From NCBI GenBank assembly GCA_963678065.2, contig CAXXVZ010000003.1:768001-832000 (forward strand): DNA of 64,000 nucleotides, given 5' to 3'. Below, one piece after another: positions 42,974 to 58,276 of this stretch. The position numbers were made by a program, and so were the translations under genes. Each line of letters starts with the position of its first letter. Within the stretch, counting starts at the first letter, position 1. The DNA is from Treponemataceae bacterium. GTDB lineage: Bacteria; Spirochaetota; Spirochaetia; Treponematales; Rectinemataceae. Below the pieces are notes generated by a model. That model worked only from the letters and a program-made list of their open reading frames with translations. It was not told where the DNA came from and searched no databases.

Positions 42974-43051
42974 AGTGTTGTGGGTTGGGGAAGGAGTGGG
43001 CAGATTGGGTGCATGCAGGGGATAGGAGTTGAGGGTACTAAAGGAGGTGGG

Positions 43052-44476
43052 GTGAGGGGGATTTCTCAGACGCATAGGCGGTATGACGAGTTTTTGTCGA
43101 GGTGGAAGCGGTGTCGAGATGCGTTTGCGGGTTCGGATGCGGTGAAGGAGGCTGGGGAGGTCTACTTGCCGCGGCTTCCGGGGCAGGATCAGGCGGCGTA
43201 TGACGCCTATAGAATGCGGACCGTGTTTTATGGCGCAGCGGGGCATACGCTGACGCTATACATGGGGTTGGCGTTTTCAAAGGCGCCGGTTATTTCGGGG
43301 CTCGTCGCGAATGATCCGCTTCTGGTGGATGCGAATATGGCGGGAAAGCCGTTTTTGGAGATTCTTGAGGATGCGCTCGAGAATGTGATCGGGATGGGCC
43401 GGTACGGGATTCTCGTGGATTATGCGGGGGAGATTCGGGCAGGGATGACGAAGGGGGATGCGGTGCGGGAACGGACGCGGCCGTATCTCGCAGCGTATGG
43501 GGCTCTGGATATAACCTTCTGGCACGAGGGGCGGCGCTCCGGGTATACGGTGCCGGATCATGTGGTGCTGCACGAGTTTTTCGAGTCGGAGGAGGCGTGT
43601 GAGGAGGAACAGTTCAGGGAGCTGATCCTCAGCGCTGAAGGGTATGTCGTGAGACTCTGGCGGAAGGTGAAGAACGAGGATGAGAAGGAAGAGTGGACGG
43701 TAGTGTCGACGGTGAGGCCGCTTCTGGATGACGCGCCGCTAGACCGGATTCCGTTTTTCTTTCTGGATCCGGAGTATGGCTCGTCGGAACCGGCCTGCCC
43801 TCCCCTGTTGGGTTTGGTGGATGTGAATATGTCGCATTACCGGACGATGGCGGATCTGGAGCACGGGAGGTTCTTTTGTGGTTTGCCGACGCCGATCTTT
43901 GCGGGGTTTTCGTTCCAGGAGGGAGAGACAGTGAAGCTTGGCTCGATGCGGGGGATCGCGTCGAGCGCTCCGGACGCAAAGGCGTATTACCTTGAGTTTA
44001 CAGGGGCGGGATTGTCGGCGCTTGAGTCGGCGGCACGTCAGAAGGAGCAGTGGATGTCGCAACTCGGCGGGTCGATGCTGGACTCGGAGAAGACGGGGAT
44101 CGAGGCGGCGGAGACGATACGGATGAAGAGGACGGGGTCGAATGCGACGCTCGCGAGTATGGCGCAGGCGGTGTCGGCGGTGATGACGAAGGTGTTGAAG
44201 TTGATGGTGCGGTGGGCTGGGGGAAATTCTGAGGGGGTGAGCGTGATGCTCTTGACGGAGTATATGCCAGCAGCGATTACGCCTGATGAGTTGTCGGTGT
44301 TGCTTCAGGCGGTGCAATCGGGGGATTTTAGGCGGGTGGATTGGCTTGCTCGGTGCAAGGTGGCGGGGATTCTCGCGCAGGATATGGATGCGGGGGAGAT
44401 TGAGAGGGAGCTTGGGAAAACCCAGAGCTATAGAATTCCCAAGAGGGAGACGGAAGGGGAACGAAAGGTTGCATAG
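43052..44476 (+). CDS. Portal protein (DUF4055-like)
   Basis: WKRCRDAFAG...VKEAGEVYLP...YDAYRMR, PPLLGL..VN..HYR..AD; follows terL; aaggaggt RBS before GTG. Confidence 0.85.
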   Translation: MRGISQTHRRYDEFLSRWKRCRDAFAGSDAVKEAGEVYLPRLPGQDQAAYDAYRMRTVFYGAAGHTLTLYMGLAFSKAPVISGLVANDPLLVDANMAGKPFLEILEDALENVIGMGRYGILVDYAGEIRAGMTKGDAVRERTRPYLAAYGALDITFWHEGRRSGYTVPDHVVLHEFFESEEACEEEQFRELILSAEGYVVRLWRKVKNEDEKEEWTVVSTVRPLLDDAPLDRIPFFFLDPEYGSSEPACPPLLGLVDVNMSHYRTMADLEHGRFFCGLPTPIFAGFSFQEGETVKLGSMRGIASSAPDAKAYYLEFTGAGLSALESAARQKEQWMSQLGGSMLDSEKTGIEAAETIRMKRTGSNATLASMAQAVSAVMTKVLKLMVRWAGGNSEGVSVMLLTEYMPAAITPDELSVLLQAVQSGDFRRVDWLARCKVAGILAQDMDAGEIERELGKTQSYRIPKRETEGERKVA

Positions 44477-44965: not shown

Positions 44966-45263
44966 CAGGCGGCTTTCGATCGATGGGGAAGCAGAATTCT
45001 CTGGATGCGATGGCAGCAGGATGATGAATTACGGAGGAAGAGCGAATGGGGACCCGGACGAGAGATCTCCGATCCTAGAGGAGGTCTCGAGGACGGGTGT
45101 CGGCAGGAGATGGCCGGAAGGTGCGATTCCGGGGCCGGGAGGCGAAGCCTTCCGGATGCAACAGGTGGATGTGGAAACGTTTTTTTTTGAGGAATGCGGG
45201 GAGACCGGAGCGGGTGGAGTCCGTTGACCGGAGACTCGTACGGAGGCCGCGACGGGATCCCCG

Positions 45264-45584
45264 GCCTCCTGTCACCACGTCCGTCGACCAGAGGTCCGGG
45301 CGTGGTGACAGGAGGCTATATAGCTGTGAGCCGAAGCGAATGCGAGCGAGGGTATTGTAAACATTTTTACGTGAGGCAGTGACGCCGTTCGGAGGACGCC
45401 CGTCGGCCGGAGGTCCGGGCGGACGGAGGACGACGGCACTGGCCCTTCTGGAGACGTCCGTCGGCCGGAGGCCCGGACGCCGACAGGAGGGCTTATGAGG
45501 ATTTTCAGGGTTGGAGGTTATGCGAACCGTCCAGAAACGGGGCTCATGTCACAAAAGGCCGCAGGCCGTGGCATGAGCCCCGTT
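45264..45584. repeat. Cluster of REP-like hairpins and a three-copy 25-bp motif
   Basis: cgyccgtcgrccrgaggyccggrcg at 45278, 45397, 45455; 16-bp stem 45264-45316; aaacggggctcatg/catgagccccgttt stem. Confidence 0.75.
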
Positions 45585-45687
45585 TGGGGTCGGTGAGCCC
45601 CAGGCGAGACTGATATGTGAGCCTGGGTTGATTTGTCAGTTGGTCCATGTGCAGCTGGTGAATTATTAGGTGCAGAAAAACGAGTCG

Positions 45688-45909
45688 TGGCACCCCTTCG
45701 TCCGATTTAAAGTGGCGGCATTTCCGCTAATGGTGTTGTATACGCCGGACCGGGCGGATCTTCCCCTACTGATTTTCAAACCATGATCCGCCCGGTCTGG
45801 GGCGAAGCCCGAGCGGAGCTCCCCATAGGAGCGGAGCGAGCGTGTACAACCCTTAGCGGATGTGCCGGGGTTTTACAACATTACTTTAGCTTCGGACGAA
45901 GGGGTGCCA
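45688..45909. repeat. Nested ~220-bp imperfect palindrome containing a degenerate attC-like unit
   Basis: 18-bp perfect IR tggcaccccttcgtccga/tcggacgaaggggtgcca; inner tccgctaa...ttagcgga and gaccgggcggatc/gatccgcccggtc. Confidence 0.75.
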
Positions 45910-46142
45910 TTGGTCGGGGGCCCATGAATTGTAGGACCAAGAATGTAAAACGTCCGGGAGCGTTCCAGGAGAACTCGGGAGCGACGTCCATGCGTCGAGT
46001 GCTGGCACTCGGGTGCTTTGTACAAGGAGCGTACCTGTACTGCGTGTGCGCATGAACGGGCACGATGGCTGCGCTGTATTGTTTATCGTAAACTGAAAGT
46101 CCCCTTTCCGGCAATTTACCATCGGCGCCGACAGTTGCCTGC

Positions 46143-46647
46143 ATGAGGATGTACTGGAAGTTTAACAGCAGCCCTACAATCCTGATTTTCCGGTTATCTG
46201 TATGGACGAGAAGCCCTACCAACTTCTTGGCGAGACGTGAGAGTCGATTCCCATGAAGAGGGGAACCAGCGCCCGACAGGACGGCGAATATATTCGGAAT
46301 GGAACCTGCTGCATCTTTTTGTTCACGGAAGCTTTGACTGGCTGGCGACATACCGATCCATGGGAATATAGAACCAAAGTCGAGTGGGCGAATCAGATCC
46401 GGTATCTGCTTGAAGTTGAATACCATGGAAGCTGGCTGAATAGTGCAGAAATCGAATTGAGTGCCATGAGCAAGCAGTACCTAGATCGAAGGATCGATAC
46501 AATAGATTCTTTGACAACGGGACTTCAGGCTTGGAAAACTAATCGAAATACTATACAGAAGGGTGCCGACTGGCAGTTCACCACACAAGATGCCCGGATC
46601 AAACTCAAGAGACTTTACCCACAGATTAAGATGTGATAAAATACTAG
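46143..46647 (+). pseudogene. IS630-family transposase remnant
   Basis: EDVLEV*QQPY...VICMDEKPYQL, HGSWLNSAEIE, WQFTTQDARIKLKRLYP; internal stop, frameshift and deletion; ends in ctag. Confidence 0.85.
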
Positions 46648-46746
46648 CCGCAACAGAATCATTTCATAGTCCGACCACAAATATTAGAAAGTAATGATCT
46701 TTTTGTTTCGGAGCATGAACATTTCATTATGAAAAAACGCAATTTC

Positions 46747-47859
46747 TTATTGATAAAACACTTGATCCATATTGCTCTTTATAATGCCCAACTTGTCCCA
46801 GACGCCCCAATGTGATCCTTGAGGTCCTTCATAGGAGGCTTTCCAACTTTCGTCAAAAGCCTCGAAATAGTAATAATCCACGTTGTTTTTACGAGCCCAT
46901 GAAATGAAATCACTAAAATATTTGACTGCGTTAGCAAGTGAAGGAATAGCATTCCCAATTGAGTTGCCATCGCTTGGCCAACCAGTCTCCGAAGCGATCA
47001 CAGCCTTCCCTCCTGCAGCAGCAACAATTTGTTTGTGAACGGTATCTATTCTCGATAGGGCTTTTCCAATATTTATGCCTTCCCAGTAGGGATAATAGTT
47101 TACCATGACTACATCAACAGCATTGATTACTGCAGGATGCGACAATAGAACCGAGTAGGTGTCAGCATAGGTCACCGGAATTCCAGGCGCAAGATATTTG
47201 ACACGATTAATGTAATCGATCAGCTGGGTTTCAGTGAGCTCACCACGAAGAAGAACTTCACTCCCTACAATGAGCATATCGGCATCCCCCGCCTTTGCGA
47301 GGGCAATTAGATTTGAAAGTTCCAACTCATTAACATCGCTATCACTGCTGATCCATGCGCCGATAGCGGTCTTAAGTCCTAACTCATGCGCCATCGAACC
47401 GGTTTTTTCGAGACCATTTGTACAGCCAAATGTCCGTATGTTTGTGGTGTAGGGGGCGATTATTTTTAGTCGAGACTGGATCTGCTTTATGCTCAGTGAC
47501 GAACCCTTGTTAGGATCCTGACCATCAACGTAGGGGCTGAAATCAAATCCATATGCCTTGTAAGTGACTGGTGTAGGTGCCAAGGTCGTAGTTGTTGTTG
47601 CTGTCATGGTTGTTGTCGTGGTGACAGAGGGTAAAGTAGTTGTCGTCGTCGTGGTGACAGAAGGTAAGGTGGTTGTTGTTGTCGTGGTGACAGAAGGTAA
47701 GGTAGTTGTTGTCGTTGTGGTGACAGAAGGTAAGGTAGTTGTTGTCGTTGTGGTGACAGAAGGTAAGGTAGTTGTTGTCGTCGAGTCGGTGATATTTTTA
47801 CATGCAACGGATGAAAAAGCTGTTAGCACTACTAGAAACCATATATGGTTAATTTTCAA
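46747..47859 (-). CDS. Lipoprotein with Thr-rich stalk and GH17-like beta-1,3-glucanase domain
   Basis: SSVAC lipobox, FSPY, VGSEVLLR, NYYPYWEG, SETGWPS, YFEAFDE.WK. Confidence 0.85.
   Translation of the reverse strand: MKINHIWFLVVLTAFSSVACKNITDSTTTTTLPSVTTTTTTTLPSVTTTTTTTLPSVTTTTTTTLPSVTTTTTTTLPSVTTTTTMTATTTTTLAPTPVTYKAYGFDFSPYVDGQDPNKGSSLSIKQIQSRLKIIAPYTTNIRTFGCTNGLEKTGSMAHELGLKTAIGAWISSDSDVNELELSNLIALAKAGDADMLIVGSEVLLRGELTETQLIDYINRVKYLAPGIPVTYADTYSVLLSHPAVINAVDVVMVNYYPYWEGINIGKALSRIDTVHKQIVAAAGGKAVIASETGWPSDGNSIGNAIPSLANAVKYFSDFISWARKNNVDYYYFEAFDESWKASYEGPQGSHWGVWDKLGIIKSNMDQVFYQ
47609..47782 (-). repeat. 33-bp coding tandem repeat, about 5 copies (TTTTTTTLPSV)
   Basis: ggtgacagaaggtaaggtagttgttgtcgttgt units with synonymous variation. 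Confidence 0.93.
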
Positions 47860-48118
47860 TTTCCTCTTCCTACGGGCTATGTTTGTCCAATACGCAAATT
47901 CCTATCGCTCTTCTATATCTATTGTCATTTGAACTCACACAAGGGAGCATACTCAATTCTCCAGATGACCCAGTCGCTGAAACACATTATGACTCTTTCA
48001 GCTTCGCCAAGTACTTTTATTTTCGTGGATGATACAAACTTCGAGACTACCTTGGTTTCACAGCTCGCCAACAGGACAGAAACACTTCCCGAGGAATCGA
48101 AAGCTTCTGGCTGCGAGG

Positions 48119-50104
48119 TTACTTCTTATGCATTTTCTCCAACATGGCATCCACCTGCTTTAATATTGCCTGAGCTCCAGTACTCCGCGGATCATTGGCC
48201 GGCATAAGTTTAAGGGAAAGCATTATTTCTTCCTTACTATGTTCCAAATACTTGTCTTCGATGCATGTCATCAACGCTTGCATAAGCTTAGGACCCTTTT
48301 CGAGCTTAGCGGCGGCATGTGTTGCCAGATAGTAAGCCGATCCAAGGTTAAGATGAGCCTGGGGATCGTTTGCATTTGCATCTACGCTCTTCTTCAGTTC
48401 TGGCAACAATCCCTGAAAAGTAGTCCATGCCTGCTCATACTTACCCTCGTTAATTAATATAAGGCCATCTCGTATCTTCTTTGAGTCTGGATCCTGCGCG
48501 GGGGGCACCTTCACACCTTCGGGTACATCTTTTAAGAGGGTGGCTAAACGGGTCTTCTCCGTAGCGAGGTCAGAGATCTCTTTGGAGTATTTGTTTTCCA
48601 CATCGATAGAATGTGCTTTATCTAGCACAGACTGTATAGTTTTCAAAACATACTCAAGATCGGATTTTTGCATGGCGAAGGCGTATCTGACTTCAGGGGT
48701 TGTCAAAGCCGCGACATTCATGGAAGCAAGATTAAGTAGATTACTAGCAATAGCGAGCAACGGATATGGAAGCCATTTTACGGTGCCTTTCACCTCACCT
48801 GTGACAATCTCTCCCTGTGAGGCTGACGGATCGATGCTCAGGACAAGCAGCCATCGGAGTGTTATGCCTGTTCTCCAGTTCTGAACTTGCTCTTTCTCCT
48901 TGGTCGAGAGGACCTTGCCATCATTGATGCCTTTTTCAATATCTATTTTTTGCATCGTTGCCTCAGAGAGGGCGTTTGGCAATGGTACATCAATTGCCAA
49001 AGATCCAAGATCAGGAGCACCGATCACCGCATTCAGCGACTCTACAAGACGTTTGCCCCACAAGCCGGCACGCTCCATAAAATACACCATTTCCTGGACA
49101 CATAGTTCTTTGGACAGCTTCGGATAGGCTTCGCCATACAGGGATGCCATCTGAAGCGATGAAGAACACGATGCGTATGCGATGCTCGCCGCTAGTAAGG
49201 CAGCACGTAGACTGTCCTGCCCCGTCAAGGCATTCTTAACGGTAAGCTTCGTATAGGCGTCTTCGTATCGCTCATTCAGGATTGCGTCGAGGCCAAGCGC
49301 ATATGTCTCCTTCTCCGGCCTTAATTGCGCTGCAGGGACCTGTTGGCGCGTTTCCGTGACGACGACATCCACGAAATCCTGGAGACAGAGGTAGGATATA
49401 GCTGCAATTGATGTGTCAGACTTTGGAAGGCTCAATACATGGAGATCCTTATGAATGTCTGGCCTCTTCCTTGGGAGTAGAAACCTCGCATAGATAGCCG
49501 CGAGTTGTGGATTCTCCTTTTCGTGAATGACCGTTATCTCAACTCGCGCTTCTTTCATCATCTCTTTCGTCCTATAAGCCACATTGTCCTTGAGAAAGAG
49601 AATGGCGCGCGGGTATATACCATCTCTCGTAGGTAGAAGTTCGACGGTCTTGACAAATTGTGCATAGAATGGTTGCACCTTGGCTATGGTCGGCGTGCAC
49701 TCCAAGTATCGGAACATCGCTAGAGCCATGCCTTTATCGTCTTCCTTCCAGCCATCGAGAGTGAATCTCCCAAGGGTAAACTTAGGGTGTTCTTTAACGA
49801 AGGTCTCAAGTTCTTTGTAGGAAGAGACGAATTGGGCAGCCAAACGTAAACCGCAGAGCGAGGCAAAACGGAGGTCCAGGTTGCTGGGTTCAGCGTCAGA
49901 TGCCTGCATAAGCAAACGACATGCTTTTATCTCCCCTTCCGAACCTGAGCTACGAATCTTGAGGTTTTCGCTAATTTCCAGGTTTTGATCAATAATGGCC
50001 AGTGCCCCTCTGACAATGGTTTCGGTTGGCGTTCCTGACTGTGCGTGGCCGAAGATTAGGAAAGGAACAAGGTAACAGATGCAGAATAGTAAAAATGCCT
50101 TCAT
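48119..50104 (-). CDS. Secreted helical/TPR-like protein, cassette-borne
   Basis: Signal peptide MKAFLLFC..., TPR-like DPQAHLNLGSAYY; starts after GTTCGGC and an aggag RBS. Confidence 0.7.
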   Translation of the reverse strand: MKAFLLFCICYLVPFLIFGHAQSGTPTETIVRGALAIIDQNLEISENLKIRSSGSEGEIKACRLLMQASDAEPSNLDLRFASLCGLRLAAQFVSSYKELETFVKEHPKFTLGRFTLDGWKEDDKGMALAMFRYLECTPTIAKVQPFYAQFVKTVELLPTRDGIYPRAILFLKDNVAYRTKEMMKEARVEITVIHEKENPQLAAIYARFLLPRKRPDIHKDLHVLSLPKSDTSIAAISYLCLQDFVDVVVTETRQQVPAAQLRPEKETYALGLDAILNERYEDAYTKLTVKNALTGQDSLRAALLAASIAYASCSSSLQMASLYGEAYPKLSKELCVQEMVYFMERAGLWGKRLVESLNAVIGAPDLGSLAIDVPLPNALSEATMQKIDIEKGINDGKVLSTKEKEQVQNWRTGITLRWLLVLSIDPSASQGEIVTGEVKGTVKWLPYPLLAIASNLLNLASMNVAALTTPEVRYAFAMQKSDLEYVLKTIQSVLDKAHSIDVENKYSKEISDLATEKTRLATLLKDVPEGVKVPPAQDPDSKKIRDGLILINEGKYEQAWTTFQGLLPELKKSVDANANDPQAHLNLGSAYYLATHAAAKLEKGPKLMQALMTCIEDKYLEHSKEEIMLSLKLMPANDPRSTGAQAILKQVDAMLEKMHKK

Positions 50105-50124
50105 GGTTTCTCTCCTTTCCTGTT

Positions 50125-50194
50125 GCCGAACGTCACAAATCAGCGGACCTGAGCCTGTTGCGGGCTCGAGGTCCGCTGATTTGTGACGTTCGGC
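50125..50194 (-). other. attC-like recombination site (70 bp)
   Basis: GCCGAAC...GTTCGGC ends, 26-bp stem, overlaps the upstream TAG, followed by RBS and ATG. Confidence 0.75.
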
Positions 50195-51192
50195 TATTGA
50201 TTCTCGTTCTTCCACGATTCGTATCTCTCGAAGGTATCAGGATCGATCGTACCGTTGAGATTTCGATCACCGAGCGTGAATGCGGCCTTGATCGTCTTGC
50301 CAATCAGAACCTTCCCTTGCTTGTCGATTCTGACTTGGCTCTTTTTCGCGAAGACAACGTCCTGTCCAGCGGCTTGCACAAAGATGGCAGAGTCCTGCGC
50401 AAGTCGTCCCTTCCATATCTGATTCTTAATCTGATTTTTAGTCTGGAACTCGATCACATCTTGGGCGTCCTTGGTTTTCGCCTTGGTAAGTTCATTGACA
50501 ATGTCGTCAATGATTTTCACAGTTTCGTCCGAAGGTTTGTTAATGGGTAATTTGGAAAAACGTTTGTATCGCCCAAAGCTCTGGCAGCCCCAGATAATTT
50601 GCCAACCGCCAAGAATGGCAAAGAAGCTGTGGCCACCATCAGATACAGAGTTCGTAATCGTTATGATGATGTTCCACAACCCTACAATGATGAGAGCAAC
50701 TCCATAGACAATCATCCCGAACGGTGTTGGGGAAGTGACTATCCAGACACCTTCGACGAGTAGGAATATCCCGATTAACCCGAGAATCACGTTGATTGGG
50801 TTATCTCCCATTCCTCTGAAACCCATTGCAATCGCAATGAGACCGAAAACTATGCTCCCGATCCCCGACGGTCTGAGGATCTTCCTTATTAGCCTGTAGT
50901 TTGAAACTCTTTGCAGATCGTCTAATCGCGTGTCTGTGTGCTCCGAGCCCAGTTTTTGGCTTAGTGACTCTATGATGTGCTCTGCTGCAATCCGTGCGTC
51001 CTCAAGCTGCCTATCGTGGGTTCTCAGTTTCTCCTCTATGCAGTCTCCTTTGCCTCTTTGTAGCAAGAGGGATCGTGCATAGTCGATTGCTTCAGTCGTG
51101 TAGTCTTCCGGTTTGTCGAGCATGCACAAGAGTTTCTCGTCATTGCACCTCTCCAATCGCTCTCTGATGTCTGCCTGTAGTGTCATGTTCAT
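50194..51192 (-). CDS. Membrane protein (about 4 TM helices), gene cassette
   Basis: Hydrophobic core; flanked by GTTCGGC (51210-51204) and its exact complement GCCGAAC (50194-50188). Confidence 0.75.
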   Translation of the reverse strand: MNMTLQADIRERLERCNDEKLLCMLDKPEDYTTEAIDYARSLLLQRGKGDCIEEKLRTHDRQLEDARIAAEHIIESLSQKLGSEHTDTRLDDLQRVSNYRLIRKILRPSGIGSIVFGLIAIAMGFRGMGDNPINVILGLIGIFLLVEGVWIVTSPTPFGMIVYGVALIIVGLWNIIITITNSVSDGGHSFFAILGGWQIIWGCQSFGRYKRFSKLPINKPSDETVKIIDDIVNELTKAKTKDAQDVIEFQTKNQIKNQIWKGRLAQDSAIFVQAAGQDVVFAKKSQVRIDKQGKVLIGKTIKAAFTLGDRNLNGTIDPDTFERYESWKNENQ

Positions 51193-51203
51193 CCCCCTCG
51201 ATT

Positions 51204-51222
51204 GCCGAACATACGTTTATCC
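51204..51222 (-). other. Right half of an attC site
   Basis: ggataaacgtat-GTTCGGC just before RBS gaggggg and ATG 51192; left half replaced by IS110 remnant. Confidence 0.55.
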
Positions 51223-51242
51223 TTCTTCTATGAGAACATCCG

Positions 51243-51716
51243 TTAAGCGGCAGTTTGAAGGATTTTTTCGAGTTCTCGCACCTTTCGGCGGTAGATGCGG
51301 GCGTCGAAATAGCGATAGACCTCCTGGTTTTTCAGCATGAAGTACATCGCGACGAAGGTCTTGCGGACGATGGCGGCCTGTACTTTGTTCCTCCGCTTCG
51401 ACGAATGTCGGGCGCGAAAACGCTCAAAACCCTCGTTCCCACGAACGACGTGCTCGAGCCCCTGCAGGATGAATCGATACGAGGTCCTGCGTCCTCGGCG
51501 GTTCAGCCCTCCTTCACGCAGCCTCTTTCCTGACGCATCGACCTTCTCCACGCTCGAGAGATAGGACGTCATGTTCTTCACGGAGGAAGGAAAGCGCTCG
51601 ATCCTCACGATATCCGACATGAATACGACGGCCCCAAGGATGCTTATGCCCGAGATACTGATCAAAAGTTCCGTTTCCCGCTGAAATCGGCGCACCCCTA
51701 TGTCTGACCTGTACTG
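51243..51716 (-). pseudogene. IS110-family transposase C-terminal remnant
   Basis: LLISISGISILGA...DI..IERF...SY......DASG...G...RRG...AIVRK pattern; RuvC (DEDD) domain missing. Confidence 0.75.
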
Positions 51717-53645
51717 GTCGAGTAGACATGTCATCCTCAAAGCGTTGTACAACGAGTAAGAGAATGCACACCCCTCATAGAACCGAACTTGCGGATTTCA
51801 AGCATTCGGCTCTTCGACGATATTCACCACATGCGCTCTTGAGAGAATACAGGTAATGGTAGATTCGTGGTTTCGGCAGCTCGTGGCGTTCTAGGTAGAT
51901 GGAAAAGGCAACCCAGTCCATGCAATTCTTCTGGCTCCGCCTATTTATCCACTTGAACACCATTCGCCGTACCCTATGTAAAAGTTTATAATACTTTGAG
52001 AGTTTCTGCTTATCCCATAGTAGCGAAAATGACCCAGAAGTTTGGCCTTGAGTATTGTCCACCATTCCTGTATTGGTACTCGGTTTCTGATATTCTTCAA
52101 CCATTGGTTCATTTCCTTCAGCTTCACAGCCAGTTTCTTGCGATCAGTCTTGTGGCCGAGCTCGAAGAATCCGCTTCGCGTTTTATCCATGTAATGGGTA
52201 AAATCGAGGAAATTGAATGTCTCCGGCTTCGTACCATTCCCCTTCGCGTCCCATCCGGCGAATCGTCCGAACTCAATAATCCGCGTCTTCTCTTTTGTCA
52301 GCTCCAGATTGAATTTATCAAGCCGTCCCATGAGCGCTTTGAGTATCTTTTCCGCTTCGTCCTTGTACTGTACGCAGATTACAAAGTCATCAGCATACCA
52401 CGGCCATTTCCACTACCCCACGGCATCGAGGCTTCACTACGCGCTTAAGCCCAATAGGTCGAGCACATAATGAAGATATACGTTGGCGAGTATGGGGGAG
52501 ACGATCCCACCTTGGGGAGTTCCCGTAACACTCTCGTGAAACGTTCCTTCCTCCATCTAGCCGTTGTGTAGAAAGCGGGCGATCAGGTGCAGCAGGTTCG
52601 GGTCGCTTATCCTGTGCTCCAGGAACTTCAGTACCCAGGAATGCAAAACGTTGTCGAAAAATCCCTTGATGTCGCAGTCAATCACATGATTGACCGGTTT
52701 CGTCATGATGATCTTGTCGACACGTTCCACTGCCTGGTGACAGCTCCTCTTGGGGCGAAATCCATAGGAGCAGTCGAGAAAGTTGGCTTCGTATACCGCT
52801 TCCAGTATCCGGGCTATCCCTGTTTGGACTATCTTGTCCTCTGTCGAGGGGATACCAAGCGGCTGCAGTTTCTTGTTGGCCTTGGGGTGTATTGTATACT
52901 CCTCGCACCGGCTGTGGCTTATAGGCCTGACTTTTCTATCTCACCACGAGATTCATCAAGTTTTCGTCGAGGGTTCGTCCGTGTTCTTCTATTCCGATCC
53001 CGTCGATTCCCGCCGCCTTTCCTTCCTTGAGTATCTCAGAGCACTCTCTCAGATTCGCTTCATTGAGCAAATAGGCCGCGTTGTTGATCTTTTCCCCGTT
53101 TCCTCTCCTTGTGATCTCGGCCATGAGGGTCAGTTTCGTTTGTATGGTAGCCTCGTCTCCTGTACGATCTATGTCCCTCTGCATACCGCCGCCGATCCCT
53201 TCGAGTGAACTGTAGTCCTCGCGGGCCGTTACCCCGCTACACCTCTACTACGAATCAGTCCGACTCCCGATGGTCATCTCCGCGTCCTCGCCTTTCCAGC
53301 TTGTCAGCGGATATCCCCATATTTCGGGAACCCAGCAGGGCCCCCAAGTTCCTGTGTTTTCCGTTCGTGGCCAGACCGCGGCCTTCGACACCGATGAAGC
53401 GATGCAGCGCTCGCCCTGACGTGCCGTACCGTGTTGCCTTCCGGCTATTGAACGCCGTCGGCCTCCATGACTTGTCCATTTCGGAGCTCAATACCTTCGC
53501 TCGCGTTGCGGTCTAGGCAATTCCTTCAAGCGGCTTTATCGCTTCCCGTTACCGGTAACGATGCGCTGTCAGTGGCAGGTGGTCGGCTCGACCTTGCCTG
53601 CGCCGGACTCTAGCCGGCAAGAAAACACAAGCTTTCTTGGCGCAC
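51717..53645 (-). mobile_element. Full-length group II intron with decayed RT (class E-like)
   Basis: 5' GTGCGCCAAG at 53645; domain V gagccgaatgcttgaaatccgcaagttcggttc; domain VI ending ctactcgac at 51717. Confidence 0.88.
51830..53184 (-). pseudogene. ltrA: Group II intron reverse transcriptase/maturase with stops and frameshifts
   Basis: KAAGIDG, PLGIP, SYGFRP, DIKGFFD, GTPQGG, YADDF (52398-52384), FNFLDFTH, GHFRYYG; no endonuclease domain seen. Confidence 0.9.
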
Positions 53646-53659
53646 TCAATAGTGGACAA

Positions 53660-53704
53660 ATGGGGCGCAGCGGAATCCCCGTCCAGTGTAGCGCGTTGTT
53701 AATC
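53660..53704 (-). other. Left half of an attC site, truncated 14 bp before the intron 5' end
   Basis: GATTAAC-aacgcgctacactggacggggattccgctgcgccccat, 5 nt after the cassette gene stop. Confidence 0.65.
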
Positions 53705-53709
53705 GATAC

Positions 53710-54570
53710 TCATGTCTGTTTGTCCACGTGGCCACTTTCCATAGTGTCCGGATTCTTGACGACAACCGCACCTGCTCCAGACGGAATCCATGCACTCAGA
53801 CGCATTTCCTCATCCTGTGTCAACGGGAAAGCTGTTAGCGTCGCATGTGACCCCCATGCTTGAAGGATTGCCTTAAGATACCAGACCTGCGGCTTTGTCA
53901 ATGCGCTTACGAATTCGACTTGAACGGCCTTGGGATACATCTGCCAAACGAGATTGCGGAAGACCTCCGCGTTGTCAGGCAAACAGTTAGCCCAGATCTG
54001 TTCTGTTCTTTGCGATCGCTCGCGAAAGAGACACGATCCCCATTCGTCGGGAATAGCTGAGAGAAGCTCGTCTATATCTGAGTCAGGTGAATACGCAGTC
54101 AAACACCAAAAAGGCCGTTTCTGAGTGATTTCAGATTCAATCTTTGTGCTATTGATCTTCGTTCTCACTCGCGCAAGGACGTCATCTGGTGTTGGATGCA
54201 CCAACGAAAGAGCCCGCGCAACATACTCAAGGGGAGTTCCACCTTCGTCTCCCAAGGAATCAGATGTCAGATAGAAGTTCCCAAGGTTCGCTTGAGCTAC
54301 ACTGTTCCAGATATTCAGTCTTATCGCCTCCCGACCAAGGGAGATCGCAGTCACCAAATCCTGTTTGAGCCATGCCTGTGCCGCTGCAGTTGCTCTTTGT
54401 CCTGACTCTCTACGAGCAGCAGCGTGTTCCTCAACCGTTTCTATTCGATTTGAGCGACAATGAGGACAGGCATATAGACCCGGTGCCATTAACCTGTGAC
54501 AATCGATACATCGGTCAAGGCCTCTGAGGAACATGTATCCAAATGATTTGCGTTGTGTTGATTCTTCCAT
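53710..54570 (-). CDS. Zn-ribbon plus TPR-like protein, gene cassette
   Basis: CIDC...CPHC, AIRLN...AQANLG; ATG follows GTTAGTT and a ggag RBS. Confidence 0.7.
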   Translation of the reverse strand: MEESTQRKSFGYMFLRGLDRCIDCHRLMAPGLYACPHCRSNRIETVEEHAAARRESGQRATAAAQAWLKQDLVTAISLGREAIRLNIWNSVAQANLGNFYLTSDSLGDEGGTPLEYVARALSLVHPTPDDVLARVRTKINSTKIESEITQKRPFWCLTAYSPDSDIDELLSAIPDEWGSCLFRERSQRTEQIWANCLPDNAEVFRNLVWQMYPKAVQVEFVSALTKPQVWYLKAILQAWGSHATLTAFPLTQDEEMRLSAWIPSGAGAVVVKNPDTMESGHVDKQT

Positions 54571-54581
54571 ATTCTGTCTCC

Positions 54582-54643
54582 AACTAACGTCTGCGGCATC
54601 AGCGGCAGGGCGAAGCGCTGTCCGTCTGGATGCTGTTGTAGAC
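54582..54643 (-). other. attC site (canonical architecture, R'' one base short)
   Basis: gtcta(a)caacaGCATCCAGacggacagcgcttcgccctgccgCTGATGCcgcagacGTTAGTT; L''/L' boxes with extrahelical bases. Confidence 0.85.
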
Positions 54644-54706
54644 ATCCCGACACCAACACAACAAGCAGCACGGGCTCTCTACGCCTGGCAGCTCGGAGCG
54701 CATCCG

Positions 54707-55275
54707 TCACTGGGCAGGCACGAAGCCCATCACGGACATGACCTCTGCGCTCAGCAGATGATCGCTTCCGCTGGGATACACGTATCTACCATCCTTCACG
54801 CAAGCGTCGAAGCCGAGATCGACTTCTCTGCACATGGCGTGGAACTCGTCTATCGTCCTCAAGACGCCCAGCGTCGTGCAACCAACGTAGCCTTCTACTG
54901 CAGCGCGCACTAGCGAATCATGAATGTAGCTGAGAGTTGCGACGTGGTCTGACCATACTGCGACCACGTACGGTCTGAACCCCAACGCACTGGTGTTCTG
55001 GCGCGTGATGAAGTCCTTCTCAACTCCGGTGGCCGAATCATTCACAAGGTGCTCTCCAGACCTGACCCAGCTGTCAAGGTCTCCCCAGTTCGACGAGTCA
55101 ATTGGGGACACACGCAGCTCAAAGAAGGCTGTTCGGGCCTGGGCGTGCAGGTGTCATTCTCCGGACAGACGGTCTCCAGGATGGACTGGCAGAAGTACCT
55201 CTGCGGATTGAACTGCGCCCGGAATGTGGAGTCAAAGACGAACACTACTCCACCTTCGCGATCGACAGTATTCAT
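54707..55275 (-). pseudogene. Cassette gene of unknown function, probably frameshifted (ORFs 55275-55042 and 55111-54707)
   Basis: Two overlapping minus ORFs fill the interval between two attC sites. Confidence 0.45.
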
Positions 55276-55318
55276 GCGCACACCCCCTTCTGCGTAGATG
55301 GACGTCTGTTGCCGGTGT

Positions 55319-55425
55319 GCCCAACATTGGCTTGACCTTTAAACCCCGTGCTTGAGCGAAGCGATGGCTTGTCGTGGTTCTTGCGTAATCTTCTCGCAAG
55401 AACCACGACAAAGGGGCTTTATAAG
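55319..55425 (-). other. Long attC site whose left end is replaced by a group II intron 3' end
   Basis: cttataaagcccc pairs with ggggtttaaagg; internal ttgtcgtggttcttgcg stem; ends aagccaat-GTTGGGC. Confidence 0.75.
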
Positions 55426-55850
55426 GTCGAGTAGGCCAGGGAAATTTCACCCCCAGCCCCTCACAGAACCGTACGTGATAGGCTCCCATCATACGGCTCT
55501 TTATATTCAACCAGTACCATACCAGCTTAGTTCCCAGTGCTCGAAAAGCTGCGGCAATCGTCTGGCTTCATTTGCGATAAACGCGAAGGCCATGTACCAA
55601 CTCCGCTTGAGTTTCCTGTATCGATTCTTTGCCCACTTAACTAAAATCGCATTGAACATCTCACAGATGCCGACCAACGCAGTTCATCGAGACTTCCCAT
55701 AATAGTTTAGCCATCTCCTCTGCGATCGGAGCGATCACTTCATTATGACTAAGCAATACAACTATGCCTTTATTGCTGCATAAGGTTTTTGCTTTATCAC
55801 CGTTAGGAGGGTGGTAATTCTTTTGAGGACAAAAATTAGATGTGCGCAAC
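55426..55850 (-). mobile_element. Second group II intron, 3' fragment (class D-like)
   Basis: Domain V gagccgtatgatgggagcctatcacgtacggttc, domain VI ...ccctggcctactcgac; maturase remnant WLNYYG...LVKWAKNRYRKL...PQLFEHW; left boundary approximate. Confidence 0.85.
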
Positions 55851-56011
55851 TTCCCTCGCCGCAACAGAGTGGAAGCATGACAACGCATCCTTACTCATCG
55901 ACGCGGGGAACACCTCCACAAGTATGACTCTATTTTATTCTTGTTTTGCATGCTGTCAACTAAGAATCTTCTCAATAACAAGAGGCTGTCTAGGAAATGA
56001 TTCCCGGACAT

Positions 56012-56101
56012 GAAAGGGCGCGATTGGCTGTTCACTACTTAGGATGCTCGGATCAAACTCAAGAGACTTTATCCACAGATTAGCATGTAACAGAGTACAA
56101 G
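56012..56101 (+). pseudogene. Second IS630 3'-end remnant
   Basis: gatgctcggatcaaactcaagagactttatccacagatta is nearly identical to the first remnant around 46590-46630. Confidence 0.85.
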
Positions 56102-56270
56102 CTACAAATATTATTTAAAATTTGGGGTCTTCTCAAACCAAAAGCCTCATCGTACACCTACATCTGAGTATTATGAAGTTATTGCGGTTTTTCATGCTTT
56201 GACCGCGGGTATCGGGTATGGAGACCGCGGATAGTTAGCTGGCGGAAAGGAAATCTGGGAGAGGAAAGGA

Positions 56271-57011
56271 GTGACGAGAGGGATGACGTTGAAGGAGTTG
56301 GTGAGCGCCGCGAGGGTGGAGATTGAGAAGGGAGAGGGGGCGGATCGGGGGGTGCTTGCGGAGCTTGTGGGGAAGATGGAGCCGCAGGTTGTGAGGGATC
56401 AGGCGGCGCTCGCGCGGCTTGAGAAGAGGTCGCTGGTGGTGGGGGATCGGAGTCCTGAGGAGGTGGCGAAGGTTTTTCAGGATTTTGAGGATTTGAAGAA
56501 TGCAGTTGAGGAGCTGCGGGCGGCTTCGGAGGAGAAGGATCGGAGGCTTGAGAAGGTGGCGAAGGAGCGGGCGGTTTCGGAGAAGGGGCTCGCTGATGCG
56601 CTTGCGGGGGAGAAGTCGGCGGTGGCGCGGTTAGTCTTGGACAATGGGCTGACGGCGGAGTTGTTGCGGGCGAATGTGAAGGCTTCGTTGATTCCGGCGG
56701 CGAAGGCGTTGATTCGGGAGAAGGGGATTCTGTCGATTGAGTCGGAGGGGGATATCAGGCGGGCGGTGGCAACGCTGAAGCGGGAGGGGAAAGAATCGAG
56801 GGTGGAGCTTGCGGCCTATATCACGGAGTTTGCGGCTTCGGATGAGGGGAAGGAGTTTGTTCAAGCTCCGGCGAATTCGGGAGGTGGCGCGAGTGAGGCG
56901 AGGGGTGCGGGGGCTGTGCAGGGGAAGGTGATGCGGGAGGAGGTTTTCGCGGCGCTGCCACCGAAGGAGAAGGCCCGGTTTATGGCGGAGAAGGGGGCGC
57001 TGGTGGCGTAG
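56271..57011 (+). CDS. Capsid scaffold protein
   Basis: Coiled-coil charged sequence, FVQAPANSGGGA, terminal FAALPPKEKARFM; directly upstream of capsid. Confidence 0.75.
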   Translation: MTRGMTLKELVSAARVEIEKGEGADRGVLAELVGKMEPQVVRDQAALARLEKRSLVVGDRSPEEVAKVFQDFEDLKNAVEELRAASEEKDRRLEKVAKERAVSEKGLADALAGEKSAVARLVLDNGLTAELLRANVKASLIPAAKALIREKGILSIESEGDIRRAVATLKREGKESRVELAAYITEFAASDEGKEFVQAPANSGGGASEARGAGAVQGKVMREEVFAALPPKEKARFMAEKGALVA

Positions 57012-57127
57012 GTCAGGGATTCGAGAGTGGTTGGGTGGTGGTGCGGGGCGGGCCTGTCGGGAGACAGTCCCCTACCCTCGCGTTCTTTTTTTGAAGGGCC
57101 ACTGTCGGGAGACAGAGGGAGTTCGGG

Positions 57128-58276
57128 GTGGGAAATGTGTTTACGGCTCTGATGCCGGTGCTGTTTTCGGCGGCTCAGGAGATTTCCTGCGAGCCGTTCG
57201 GGATCATCAGTGCGATTTCGTCAAATTTTGACGATAAGCAGGTGGCGAAGGGCGATGTGGTGAAGGTGCCGCTCGCGTCGGGCGGGGTACCTGAGGATTT
57301 TGTGCCGGCGAATGTGCCGCCGCAGGGGGATTCGGATACTGCGGGTGAGGTGGATGTTCAGATTACGGCTTCGAAGAAGCGGTCCTGGCATCTGACGGGA
57401 GAGCAGCGGCGCTCGCTCGAGAATGCGGGGACGGACAAGGAGTGGCTCCGGCAGAAGGTTATGCAGGAGATGCGGGCGCTCCGGAATGCCGCGGAGGCGG
57501 ACTGTGGGCTCGCGATTGTGGAGGGTGCGTCGCGGGCGTTCGGGGTGGCGGGGACGACGCCGTTTGCATCGAGTCTTGATGACCTCATCGGGGTGCGGAA
57601 GGTTTTGAAGGACAATGGGGCTCCGATGGCGGACTTGCAGTTTGTCTGCGATACGGCGGCTGAGGCGAACCTTTTAAAGTTGGCGACGATTCAGCAGGCG
57701 TACGCGGCGGGTTCCGATGAGGAGCGCCGGCTGGGGCGGATCGGGCGACAGTTCGGTTTTGCGATTTCGAATTCGGCCCAGATCGGGCTGCACACAAAAG
57801 GGACAGGCACTACCTACCTCATCAATGCGACGACGCCGATGGCGGTCGGGGACTGTGAAACGGTTCTCTCCGCGGCTGGGGGCGGGTCGGGGACGATTCT
57901 TGCAGGCGATGTGGTGACGTTCGCGGCGGATGCGGTGAACAAGTATGTGGTGAATGAGGGTGTGTCGGCGATCGCGCAACGGCTCGCGATCGGGCGGCCG
58001 GGCGTGCGAAAGGCGATTGCGGTTTCGAATGCAATCACGGTGGGGGCTTCGTATACGCCGAGTCTCGCGTTTGAGCGCGGGGCTGTGGTGGGGATCATGC
58101 GGCCTCCGGTGATGCCGGCGAATCCGACGATGAGTCAGACGATGATCTGCGACGCAAAGGGGATGACGTATCTGCTGATCGAGATTGCGCAGTACGGGCA
58201 GGTGTCCTGGGAGTTGCACCTGGCCTGGGGTTTCCGGGTGATTCAGTCGGAGCATGTGGCGCTCCTTCTCGGGTAG
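57128..58276 (+). CDS. Major capsid protein (P22 coat-protein-like)
   Basis: 382 aa, ILAGDVVTFA, LAFERGA, terminal LAWG...EHVALLLG. Confidence 0.85.
   Translation: MGNVFTALMPVLFSAAQEISCEPFGIISAISSNFDDKQVAKGDVVKVPLASGGVPEDFVPANVPPQGDSDTAGEVDVQITASKKRSWHLTGEQRRSLENAGTDKEWLRQKVMQEMRALRNAAEADCGLAIVEGASRAFGVAGTTPFASSLDDLIGVRKVLKDNGAPMADLQFVCDTAAEANLLKLATIQQAYAAGSDEERRLGRIGRQFGFAISNSAQIGLHTKGTGTTYLINATTPMAVGDCETVLSAAGGGSGTILAGDVVTFAADAVNKYVVNEGVSAIAQRLAIGRPGVRKAIAVSNAITVGASYTPSLAFERGAVVGIMRPPVMPANPTMSQTMICDAKGMTYLLIEIAQYGQVSWELHLAWGFRVIQSEHVALLLG

Follow-up and report, generated by a model that had tools for sequence, protein, structure and literature searches.

A class D group II intron remnant at the L'' box of an integron attC site and its relatives at fixed top-strand attC registers

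Introduction

In reviews, the targeting of integron attC sites is treated as a speciality of class C group II introns, guided by a DNA hairpin of the bottom strand. Base pairing of a class D lineage with the conserved attC boxes on the top strand would amount to a second, mechanistically independent route into integrons. The group IIC-attC introns are described as class C elements that occupy the bottom strand and run counter to the cassettes (PMC3001079 and PMC4424553), and the same account of the well-studied cases in an earlier note on the DNA analysed below agrees with these sources. One top-strand IIC case is cited by Sonbol and Siam (PMC7923331), and for the IIB introns in integrons of hypersaline sites the same paper reports poor exon conservation and speculates that a hairpin is recognised. 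In the part of PMC7923331 drawn on here, neither a class D intron nor a repeated register inside attC occurs among the hypersaline-site introns. Likewise, searches of the open-access literature turned up no class D attC intron.

The RmInt1-type introns favour the lagging-strand template (PMC4615759, PMC5894124), and sedentary integrons mostly place the bottom strand of attC on the leading-strand template (25 of 30; PMC5371416). Such a placement would offer the top strand to these introns. Do sedentary integrons, then, expose the top strand to lagging-strand-homing introns, and do such introns freeze or reshuffle the cassettes? Are ORF-less bacterial introns, called rare in the cited part of PMC4424553, common in arrays? 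These questions on attC homing are testable with existing RmInt1-type plasmid assays.

Here we analyse a 64,000-nt stretch of a Treponemataceae genome (the window; C3:768001-832000 of assembly GCA_963678065.2, our G000), in which the 3' end of a group II intron is joined to part of an attC site. We consider it likely that a class D intron homed onto the top strand of this attC, 12 nt past the R'' box (+12), and was later truncated.

Results

The intron remnant and the attC part at its junction

The minus strand of the window carries a group II intron 3' remnant, made up of a maturase tail and domains V-VI, from 55426 to about 55735. Domains V and VI (55426..55501) match RF00029 with 63.1 bits (55501-55426, minus strand) and fold with the AGC triad of domain V (55499-55466) and a bulged A in domain VI; the fold has a z of -4.68, and none of 200 shuffles was equally stable. 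Upstream of domain V, a decayed reading frame ending ...LFEHWELSWYGTG represents the C-terminal part of the intron-encoded protein (IEP; 55507..55735, minus strand), with the end of the maturase domain, a C-tail in ...LFEHW and one internal stop. Its stop codon falls eight codons past LFEHW, so that no endonuclease domain is present, and over 61-66 aa it is 50-55% identical to class D IEPs. The earlier note had extended the intron to 55850, and this holds only as far as about 55735: positions 55600-55735 score above all 200 shuffles against 7 of 7 relatives, and positions 55735-55870 stay at shuffle level against seven relatives (43-199 of 200 shuffles as high). Domain I and the 5' exon are both absent, and the register of this dead copy of a class D (IIB3, RmInt1-like) intron is known from its 3' junction alone.

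The intron end CCTACTCGAC (55426) runs straight into CTTATAAAGCCCC and then into an inner hairpin of 17 perfect base pairs (55369-55411). The RF00029 match, the fold and the attC boxes show that this direct joining of intron end and attC part, as first reported, is real. The attC right part (55319..55425, minus strand) consists of the last L'' base, the variable arms, the inner hairpin, L' (GGTCAAG, 55337-55331), a 5-nt spacer and R' (GTTGGGC, 55325-55319); R'' and seven of the eight L'' bases are gone. It has nine other matches in the genome at 71-81% identity, six of them complete attC sites. The lost arm had been predicted as the mirror image of the right arm, but intact copies instead have R'', a 5-nt spacer and an L'' that ends TCAACC in 10 of 11 main-array sites and TCGACC in one. 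The window attC was therefore cut inside L'', after base 7 of 8 and 12 nt past R''. The intron, R' and the next ORFs share one strand both here and in the main array, in keeping with the top-strand, cassette orientation claimed before.

The attC boxes R''-L''...L'-R', the 5-nt spacers and the extrahelical base are present in all 11 intact main-array copies, and bottom-strand attC folds give z values of -7.3 and -6.9. Of the attC features, the window copy retains only L', R' and the arms. Restoration of a working attC by the intron end was considered and rejected, since the end, although pairing with L', supplies neither an R box nor an extrahelical base; for want of an R box the split attC should be inert.

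Surroundings of the remnant

The remnant stands at the head of an 11-kb piece, of about 50% GC, in which cassette-like ORFs and attC-like sites are accompanied by an IS110 remnant and a second intron. At about 45000-56270, this low-GC piece of cassette array and IS remnants splits the head module of a prophage, with the portal gene (42980-44476) on one side and the scaffold and major head genes (56271-58276) on the other. No integron integrase was identified beside the piece, which is an orphan array, and by eye R'' matches the reverse complement of the preceding R' only partially within it. The first cassette-like unit downstream (54582..55318, minus strand) holds ORFs 55281-55042 and 55111-54707, without family match, and ends in an attC-like repeat (54641-54582, minus strand) that fails the strict L-box rule. 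The second (53660..54645, minus strand) holds a 311-aa ORF, also without family match, and ends in an attC-like left half, read by eye, with an R''-like GATTAAC (53704-53698, minus strand). A complete attC-like site between cassette-like ORFs (50125..50194, minus strand) has perfect 26-bp arms and passes the L-box rule.

The second group II intron (51717..53645, minus strand; RF02005 and RF00029) is of another class, unrelated and frameshifted; the best match of its IEP is 38%, to a neighbouring IEP in locus L133. Its 5' flank lies 14 nt past the attC-like left half and its 3' flank is the IS110 remnant. As its junction is off any attC box, it was rejected as an attC-targeting intron. Its flanks presumably resemble an IS terminal repeat; searches of the genome and of plasmids gave nothing in favour of a location in a repeat of IS3 type.

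Several other elements occur in this region. An IS-end remnant (56012..56107, plus strand), which we take to belong to the IS630 family, is 78% identical to 46558-46653 and has no Pfam match; these two similar IS ends flank most of the array piece. IS110-family elements, presumably IS1111-attC-like, lie against or inside attC right arms at 51752-51200 (minus strand) and at C3:114012-115450, and are 67% identical. The inserted piece also encodes a predicted secreted glycoside hydrolase family 17 protein (47859-46747, minus strand) with a Thr-rich linker derived from a 33-bp tandem repeat.

The main array and other class D copies in the same genome

The same attC family forms the main array of this genome (C3:99-125 kb), behind the integrase IntI (C3:96956-98140) that heads it and scores 450 bits against TIGR02249 (cut-off 265). 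IntI has 394 aa, lies on the same strand as the cassettes and carries an extra N-terminal stretch, the TIGR02249 match beginning at residue 81. Eleven intact sites pass the L-box rule, and since in 9 of 10 steps (C3:99414-117817) an R' is followed by an R'' that equals its reverse complement, the main-array sites are true cassette attCs. The array region is crowded with mobile elements, including IS110, IS256-family and a second intron.

Each of the four class D 3' ends in the genome is joined on the top strand to the right part of an attC, two at +7 and two at +12. The +7 introns (C3:118121-120039 and C5:775412-773494) are full length, each of 1919 nt with an open 409-aa IEP, which in the C3 copy carries YADD; they share their first 640 nt exactly and show 101 differences thereafter. 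The second +12 remnant (C3:124612) lies behind an IS256-family gene. Among 13 genome matches to the 5'-end motif, five follow R'' at +7 and one follows it at +8, with about 14 intron-like bases; the other seven have no R'' and are seemingly unrelated over the 40 bases inspected. C2:725064 was discarded as a further intron start, the DNA after it not being intron-like. Two runs, X6 and X10, contain the intron with other 5' flanks, and that of X10 ends in another R'' at +7 (a loose end, from 2 contigs, agreement 0.78). In the 4 runs mapped out of 22 listed (DNA-type or unrecorded), no exact joint skipping the full-length +7 copy was found, short joints that skip parts of the intron ORF being set aside from this count, and no contig joining both flanks of a full-length copy occurred in the runs mapped.

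Relatives and rebuilt empty sites

At the protein level a scan yielded 77 loci, the majority of them distantly related class D introns (50-60% identity; one 66%). Closer relatives came from genome searches and from a scan of metagenomes for a domain V-VI pattern that fixed two pyrimidines after the intron end (56 loci, 48 distinct 3' exons). Neither the searches of 61 and 401 genomes nor the 56 metagenome loci gave a full-length intron close to the remnant itself; the best matches to it are confined to the final 85-120 nt. None of 401 class-level genomes contained the 5' junction pattern for +12, and the domain V-VI pattern had no match in viral contigs.

Both junctions lie at +12 in L114 (full length, 1889 nt), L128 (ORF-less, 664 nt) and L165 (ORF-less, 674 nt), and genome G102 provides a second +12 5' junction. 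At +7, both junctions are present in three relatives beyond G000, full-length and ORF-less ones counted. We rebuilt 25 empty sites and scored them by the R''/L''/L'/R' rule, which was passed by 5/5 sites at +7, 3/3 at +12, 2/4 at +36, 0/1 at +8 (L167) and 0/2 at +47/49 (L181, L186); the sites of L167, L181 and L186 are attC-like by eye, with other spacers. As controls, 0/10 other relatives and 2/3000 random positions passed, and with an earlier form of the rule none of 16 distant class D introns with parsable junctions rebuilt attC. The lineage groups were labelled after the junctions were known, and the weight of these counts rests on the base-exact registers. According to the earlier note, intact relatives at sites unrelated to attC would speak against its reading; at +7 and +12, all eight two-junction introns rebuild attC. 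Non-attC sites are used by at least five members of the remnant's subclade (L005, L147, L151, L157, L163). Only 15 of the 48 distinct metagenomic 3' exons resemble an attC right arm (L'-spacer-R'), a descriptive count since these exons had in part served to shape the rule.

Among the 15 attC-associated introns known from both ends, nine lack an ORF and measure 645-712 nt. Such short class D-type introns are frequent in attC (L128, L165, L115, L167, L133, L146, L148, L171), and L115 has two of them in successive cassettes. L133 and L146 have a common 3' flank but different 5' flanks and EBS1 loops, a pattern left either by recombination among copies of the intron or by a chimeric assembly. The full-length class D introns L181 and L186 (genome G359) are identical to each other, belong to a clade of their own and lie in the variable loop of attC-like repeats (+47/+49); their EBS1 pairs 7/7 by eye, and EBS3 is unpaired with exon +1. 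Close non-attC relatives occur in other hairpin repeats: L157 lies in an IS-end-like inverted repeat, L163 and L170 are inserted in a long palindromic repeat family, and L147 is also in a non-attC hairpin repeat.

Class assignment and the position of the remnant

The full-length IEPs are 50-51% identical to Sr.md.I1 (class D) versus 28-36% to three class C IEPs, and the remnant IEP matches Sr.md.I1 with E 1.6e-7 versus 0.10, no match and 0.35 for three class C rows. As the class D reference we used Sr.md.I1 (L190), recognised by its 419 aa, its four copies in WSM419 and the G-C pair at EBS3 that PMC4615759 describes, in place of an S. meliloti match (L189) whose identity as RmInt1 was not borne out. 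The full-length +7 IEP has RVT_1 and GIIM domains only, without an endonuclease domain. LFxHW is present in 5/5 class D rows tested and in the remnant (A-x3-P-x-LFEHW) and in 0/3 class C rows; the strict C-tail pattern LX3AX3PXLF[V/A]HW given in PMC4615759 fits 0/5 class D rows, the reference included. Domain VI of the remnant is of IIB type, and its AGC triad differs from the CGC of class C introns in the same genome. Together with the grouping of the full-length relatives' IEPs with class D, these two ribozyme features uphold the non-IIC, class D-like nature proposed from the sequence, and the grouping with class C that the earlier note had named as evidence against it was not found for the full-length IEPs.

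Trees of 38 and 25 rows, picked from 96 IEPs, were built under LG+G4. They split the full-length relatives from the three class C rows (100/100) and place the remnant in a class D subclade with +7, +12 and non-attC introns (98-99/99-100). Within it, the remnant is sister to L114, the only full-length +12 IEP and one that carries an internal stop, with only 59-66% bootstrap, a weak sequence-based indication that the remnant may belong to the +12 lineage. That the IEPs at +7, at +12 and at the loop site (L181) form a single clade is rejected (p-AU 1.9e-5); attC use therefore arose more than once or was repeatedly lost.

Could the window junction be secondary, +12 not being a true site? On this account a +7-type insertion (intron end TCGAC, exon TCAAC, alike in 4/5 bases) lost a 5-nt unit by slippage or suffered a larger microhomology deletion, in a heavily rearranged locus of a genome where +7 introns are common. 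We hold this to be improbable. In a 97-nt DNA tree without starred branches, the domains V-VI of the remnant are closest to a +7 copy (86%); the 14 nt before domain V, however, match +12 introns at 9-11 positions versus 7-9 for +7 introns. AU tests on the 65-aa remnant reject neither its grouping with +7 IEPs (p-AU 0.25) nor a forced grouping with class C (p-AU 0.28), yet its protein is 51% identical to the +7 IEP, to which +7 copies are about 79-93% identical over the main aligned stretches. Moreover, +12 occurs elsewhere as a genuine register that has an EBS1 and an EBS3 of its own, and the second remnant of this genome, likewise joined at +12, has 91-92% identity with the ORF-less introns of that register. 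Loss of the unit was seen in 0/8 of the +7-lineage 3' ends compared, and this also disfavours the tcgac/ttgac microhomology deletion raised by the earlier note, which is conceivable for a single truncated copy.

EBS/IBS pairing and target recognition

EBS loops could be parsed in 24 of 27 rows (L181, L186 and L137 failed; two copies, from G019 and G024, had been excluded beforehand as interrupted or cut). EBS1 forms at least 5/6 Watson-Crick pairs in 15/24 cognate versus 9/504 cross-group comparisons, so the EBS1/IBS1 pairing that the earlier note had suggested checking is present in the relatives. For EBS2 the corresponding counts are 12/24 versus 34/504, and EBS3 pairs with exon +1 in 22/23 introns. 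In the +12 lineage, EBS1 GUUGAA forms 6, 6 and 5 of 6 pairs with TTCAAC of L'', against 2-3/6 for the +7 EBS1 loops, and EBS3 G faces C; these TTCAAC and C partners are matched by the window 3' exon and the intact sites. The remnant's own EBS loops, by analogy with these relatives, would have paired with attC. In the +7 lineage, EBS3 A faces T, EBS2 pairs 4-5/6 with the R'' core, including one mismatch, and EBS1 is loose (4-5/6 counting G-U). Overall, the pairing points to ordinary base-pair retrohoming onto attC and not to the bottom-strand, hairpin-guided IIC-attC mode; structure or protein may have a role in targeting by the +7 lineage.

It is quite unlikely that the lineage recognises the attC hairpin, as a top-strand fold, through its protein in the manner of IIC introns, EBS pairing being secondary. 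The +7 cut does stay 7 nt from R'' while IBS1 varies (ACTGCT, CCCGCT, ATTCAT, TCCAGT, ACCATT, CCTGCT), and the loose EBS1 and mismatched EBS2 of that lineage fit such a role; relaxed pairing, however, is known for RmInt2 (PMC4615759). From lineage to lineage, those at non-attC sites included, EBS1, EBS2 and EBS3 change together with the flanks, and the lineages cutting at +7, +8, +12, +36 and +47/49 each have their own matching EBS1. Chance retrotransposition into an AT-rich, selectively neutral array, without attC specificity, has next to no probability because the registers are fixed, being base-exact in at least four genomes and several metagenomes against 2/3000 random positions passing the rule, even though the array region gathers many mobile elements and many relatives lie away from attC.

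Discussion

The repeated attC box most probably served a class D intron as the site of ordinary retrohoming, and homing at +12, followed by truncation, could have proceeded as follows. The RNP would reverse-splice into single-stranded top-strand DNA, EBS1 GUUGAA binding the conserved L'' TTCAAC, EBS2 binding partly R'' or spacer bases and EBS3 G pairing with the exon +1 C, and the IEP would then copy the RNA from a replication-fork primer. The sister lineage of the same genome would cut 5 nt earlier (+7), with EBS2 on the R'' core and EBS1 loosely matched. Insertion would part R'' from the rest of the site, and the attC would no longer recombine; as the intron is co-oriented, its splicing would mend the cassette transcripts and leave them nearly unchanged. 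The 5' 1.6 kb and the left attC arm would have been lost when a piece of the array was excised and moved into the prophage. For the window copy itself, we infer its former splicing, mobility and priming, the loss of attC activity and this truncation history.

GC skew, which is weak here, bears on the lagging-template bias: the main array and the C5 copy fit it, but the window and C3:849865 do not. There are hints of exchange between intron copies, from L133/L146 and from the two full-length copies of this genome, and assembly collapse could explain both. More speculatively, and as a reading that we consider rather doubtful, the attC top strand may be a niche colonised more than once by class D introns, each lineage having retuned its EBS loops to a different portion of attC, with ORF-less satellites mobilised in trans. 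Copies in the same register might then lock a cassette in place while leaving it expressed, and might also provide transferable homology through which attC halves are exchanged and arrays rearranged with no need for an integrase.

How do these introns compare with the systems described so far? The non-IIC, top-strand insertion that the earlier note had put forward as a less-described mode of attC homing gains support from the fixed registers of the relatives and from their EBS/IBS covariation. The nearest relatives in kind are RmInt1, RmInt2 and Sr.md.I1 of Sinorhizobium (class D, IIB3), which share the GTGTG...AC ends and the AGC triad, an IEP with RT and maturase but no endonuclease domain and with an LFxHW tail, and EBS1/2/3 pairing with a 1-2 nt linker. 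The RmInt1 group targets insertion sequences (ISRm2011-2, ISRm17, IS66), whereas the introns described here target an integron attC box, their sister lineages use several registers in one type of site, and ORF-less derivatives of 645-712 nt are frequent. The IIB introns of hypersaline-site integrons are likewise non-IIC introns in cassette arrays, and one of them, UHB.I2, lies in cassette orientation; they differ, as far as described in the part of PMC7923331 drawn on, in belonging to other IEP classes (UHB.I2 to CL1, H.ha.F1/F2 to class E) and in being single cases just downstream of attC (Sonbol and Siam 2021). Group IIC-attC introns (S.ma.I2 and relatives) resemble the present ones in inserting into the attC sites of arrays and in parting a cassette gene from a working attC. 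They are class C introns in the bottom strand, opposite to the cassettes, which insert at TTGT/T in R'' and use a hairpin in place of IBS2 (PMC3001079, PMC7923331); the introns described here, in contrast, are class D, with IEPs only 28-36% identical to class C, use EBS2 pairing, and insert in the top strand, inside L'' at +7 or +12.
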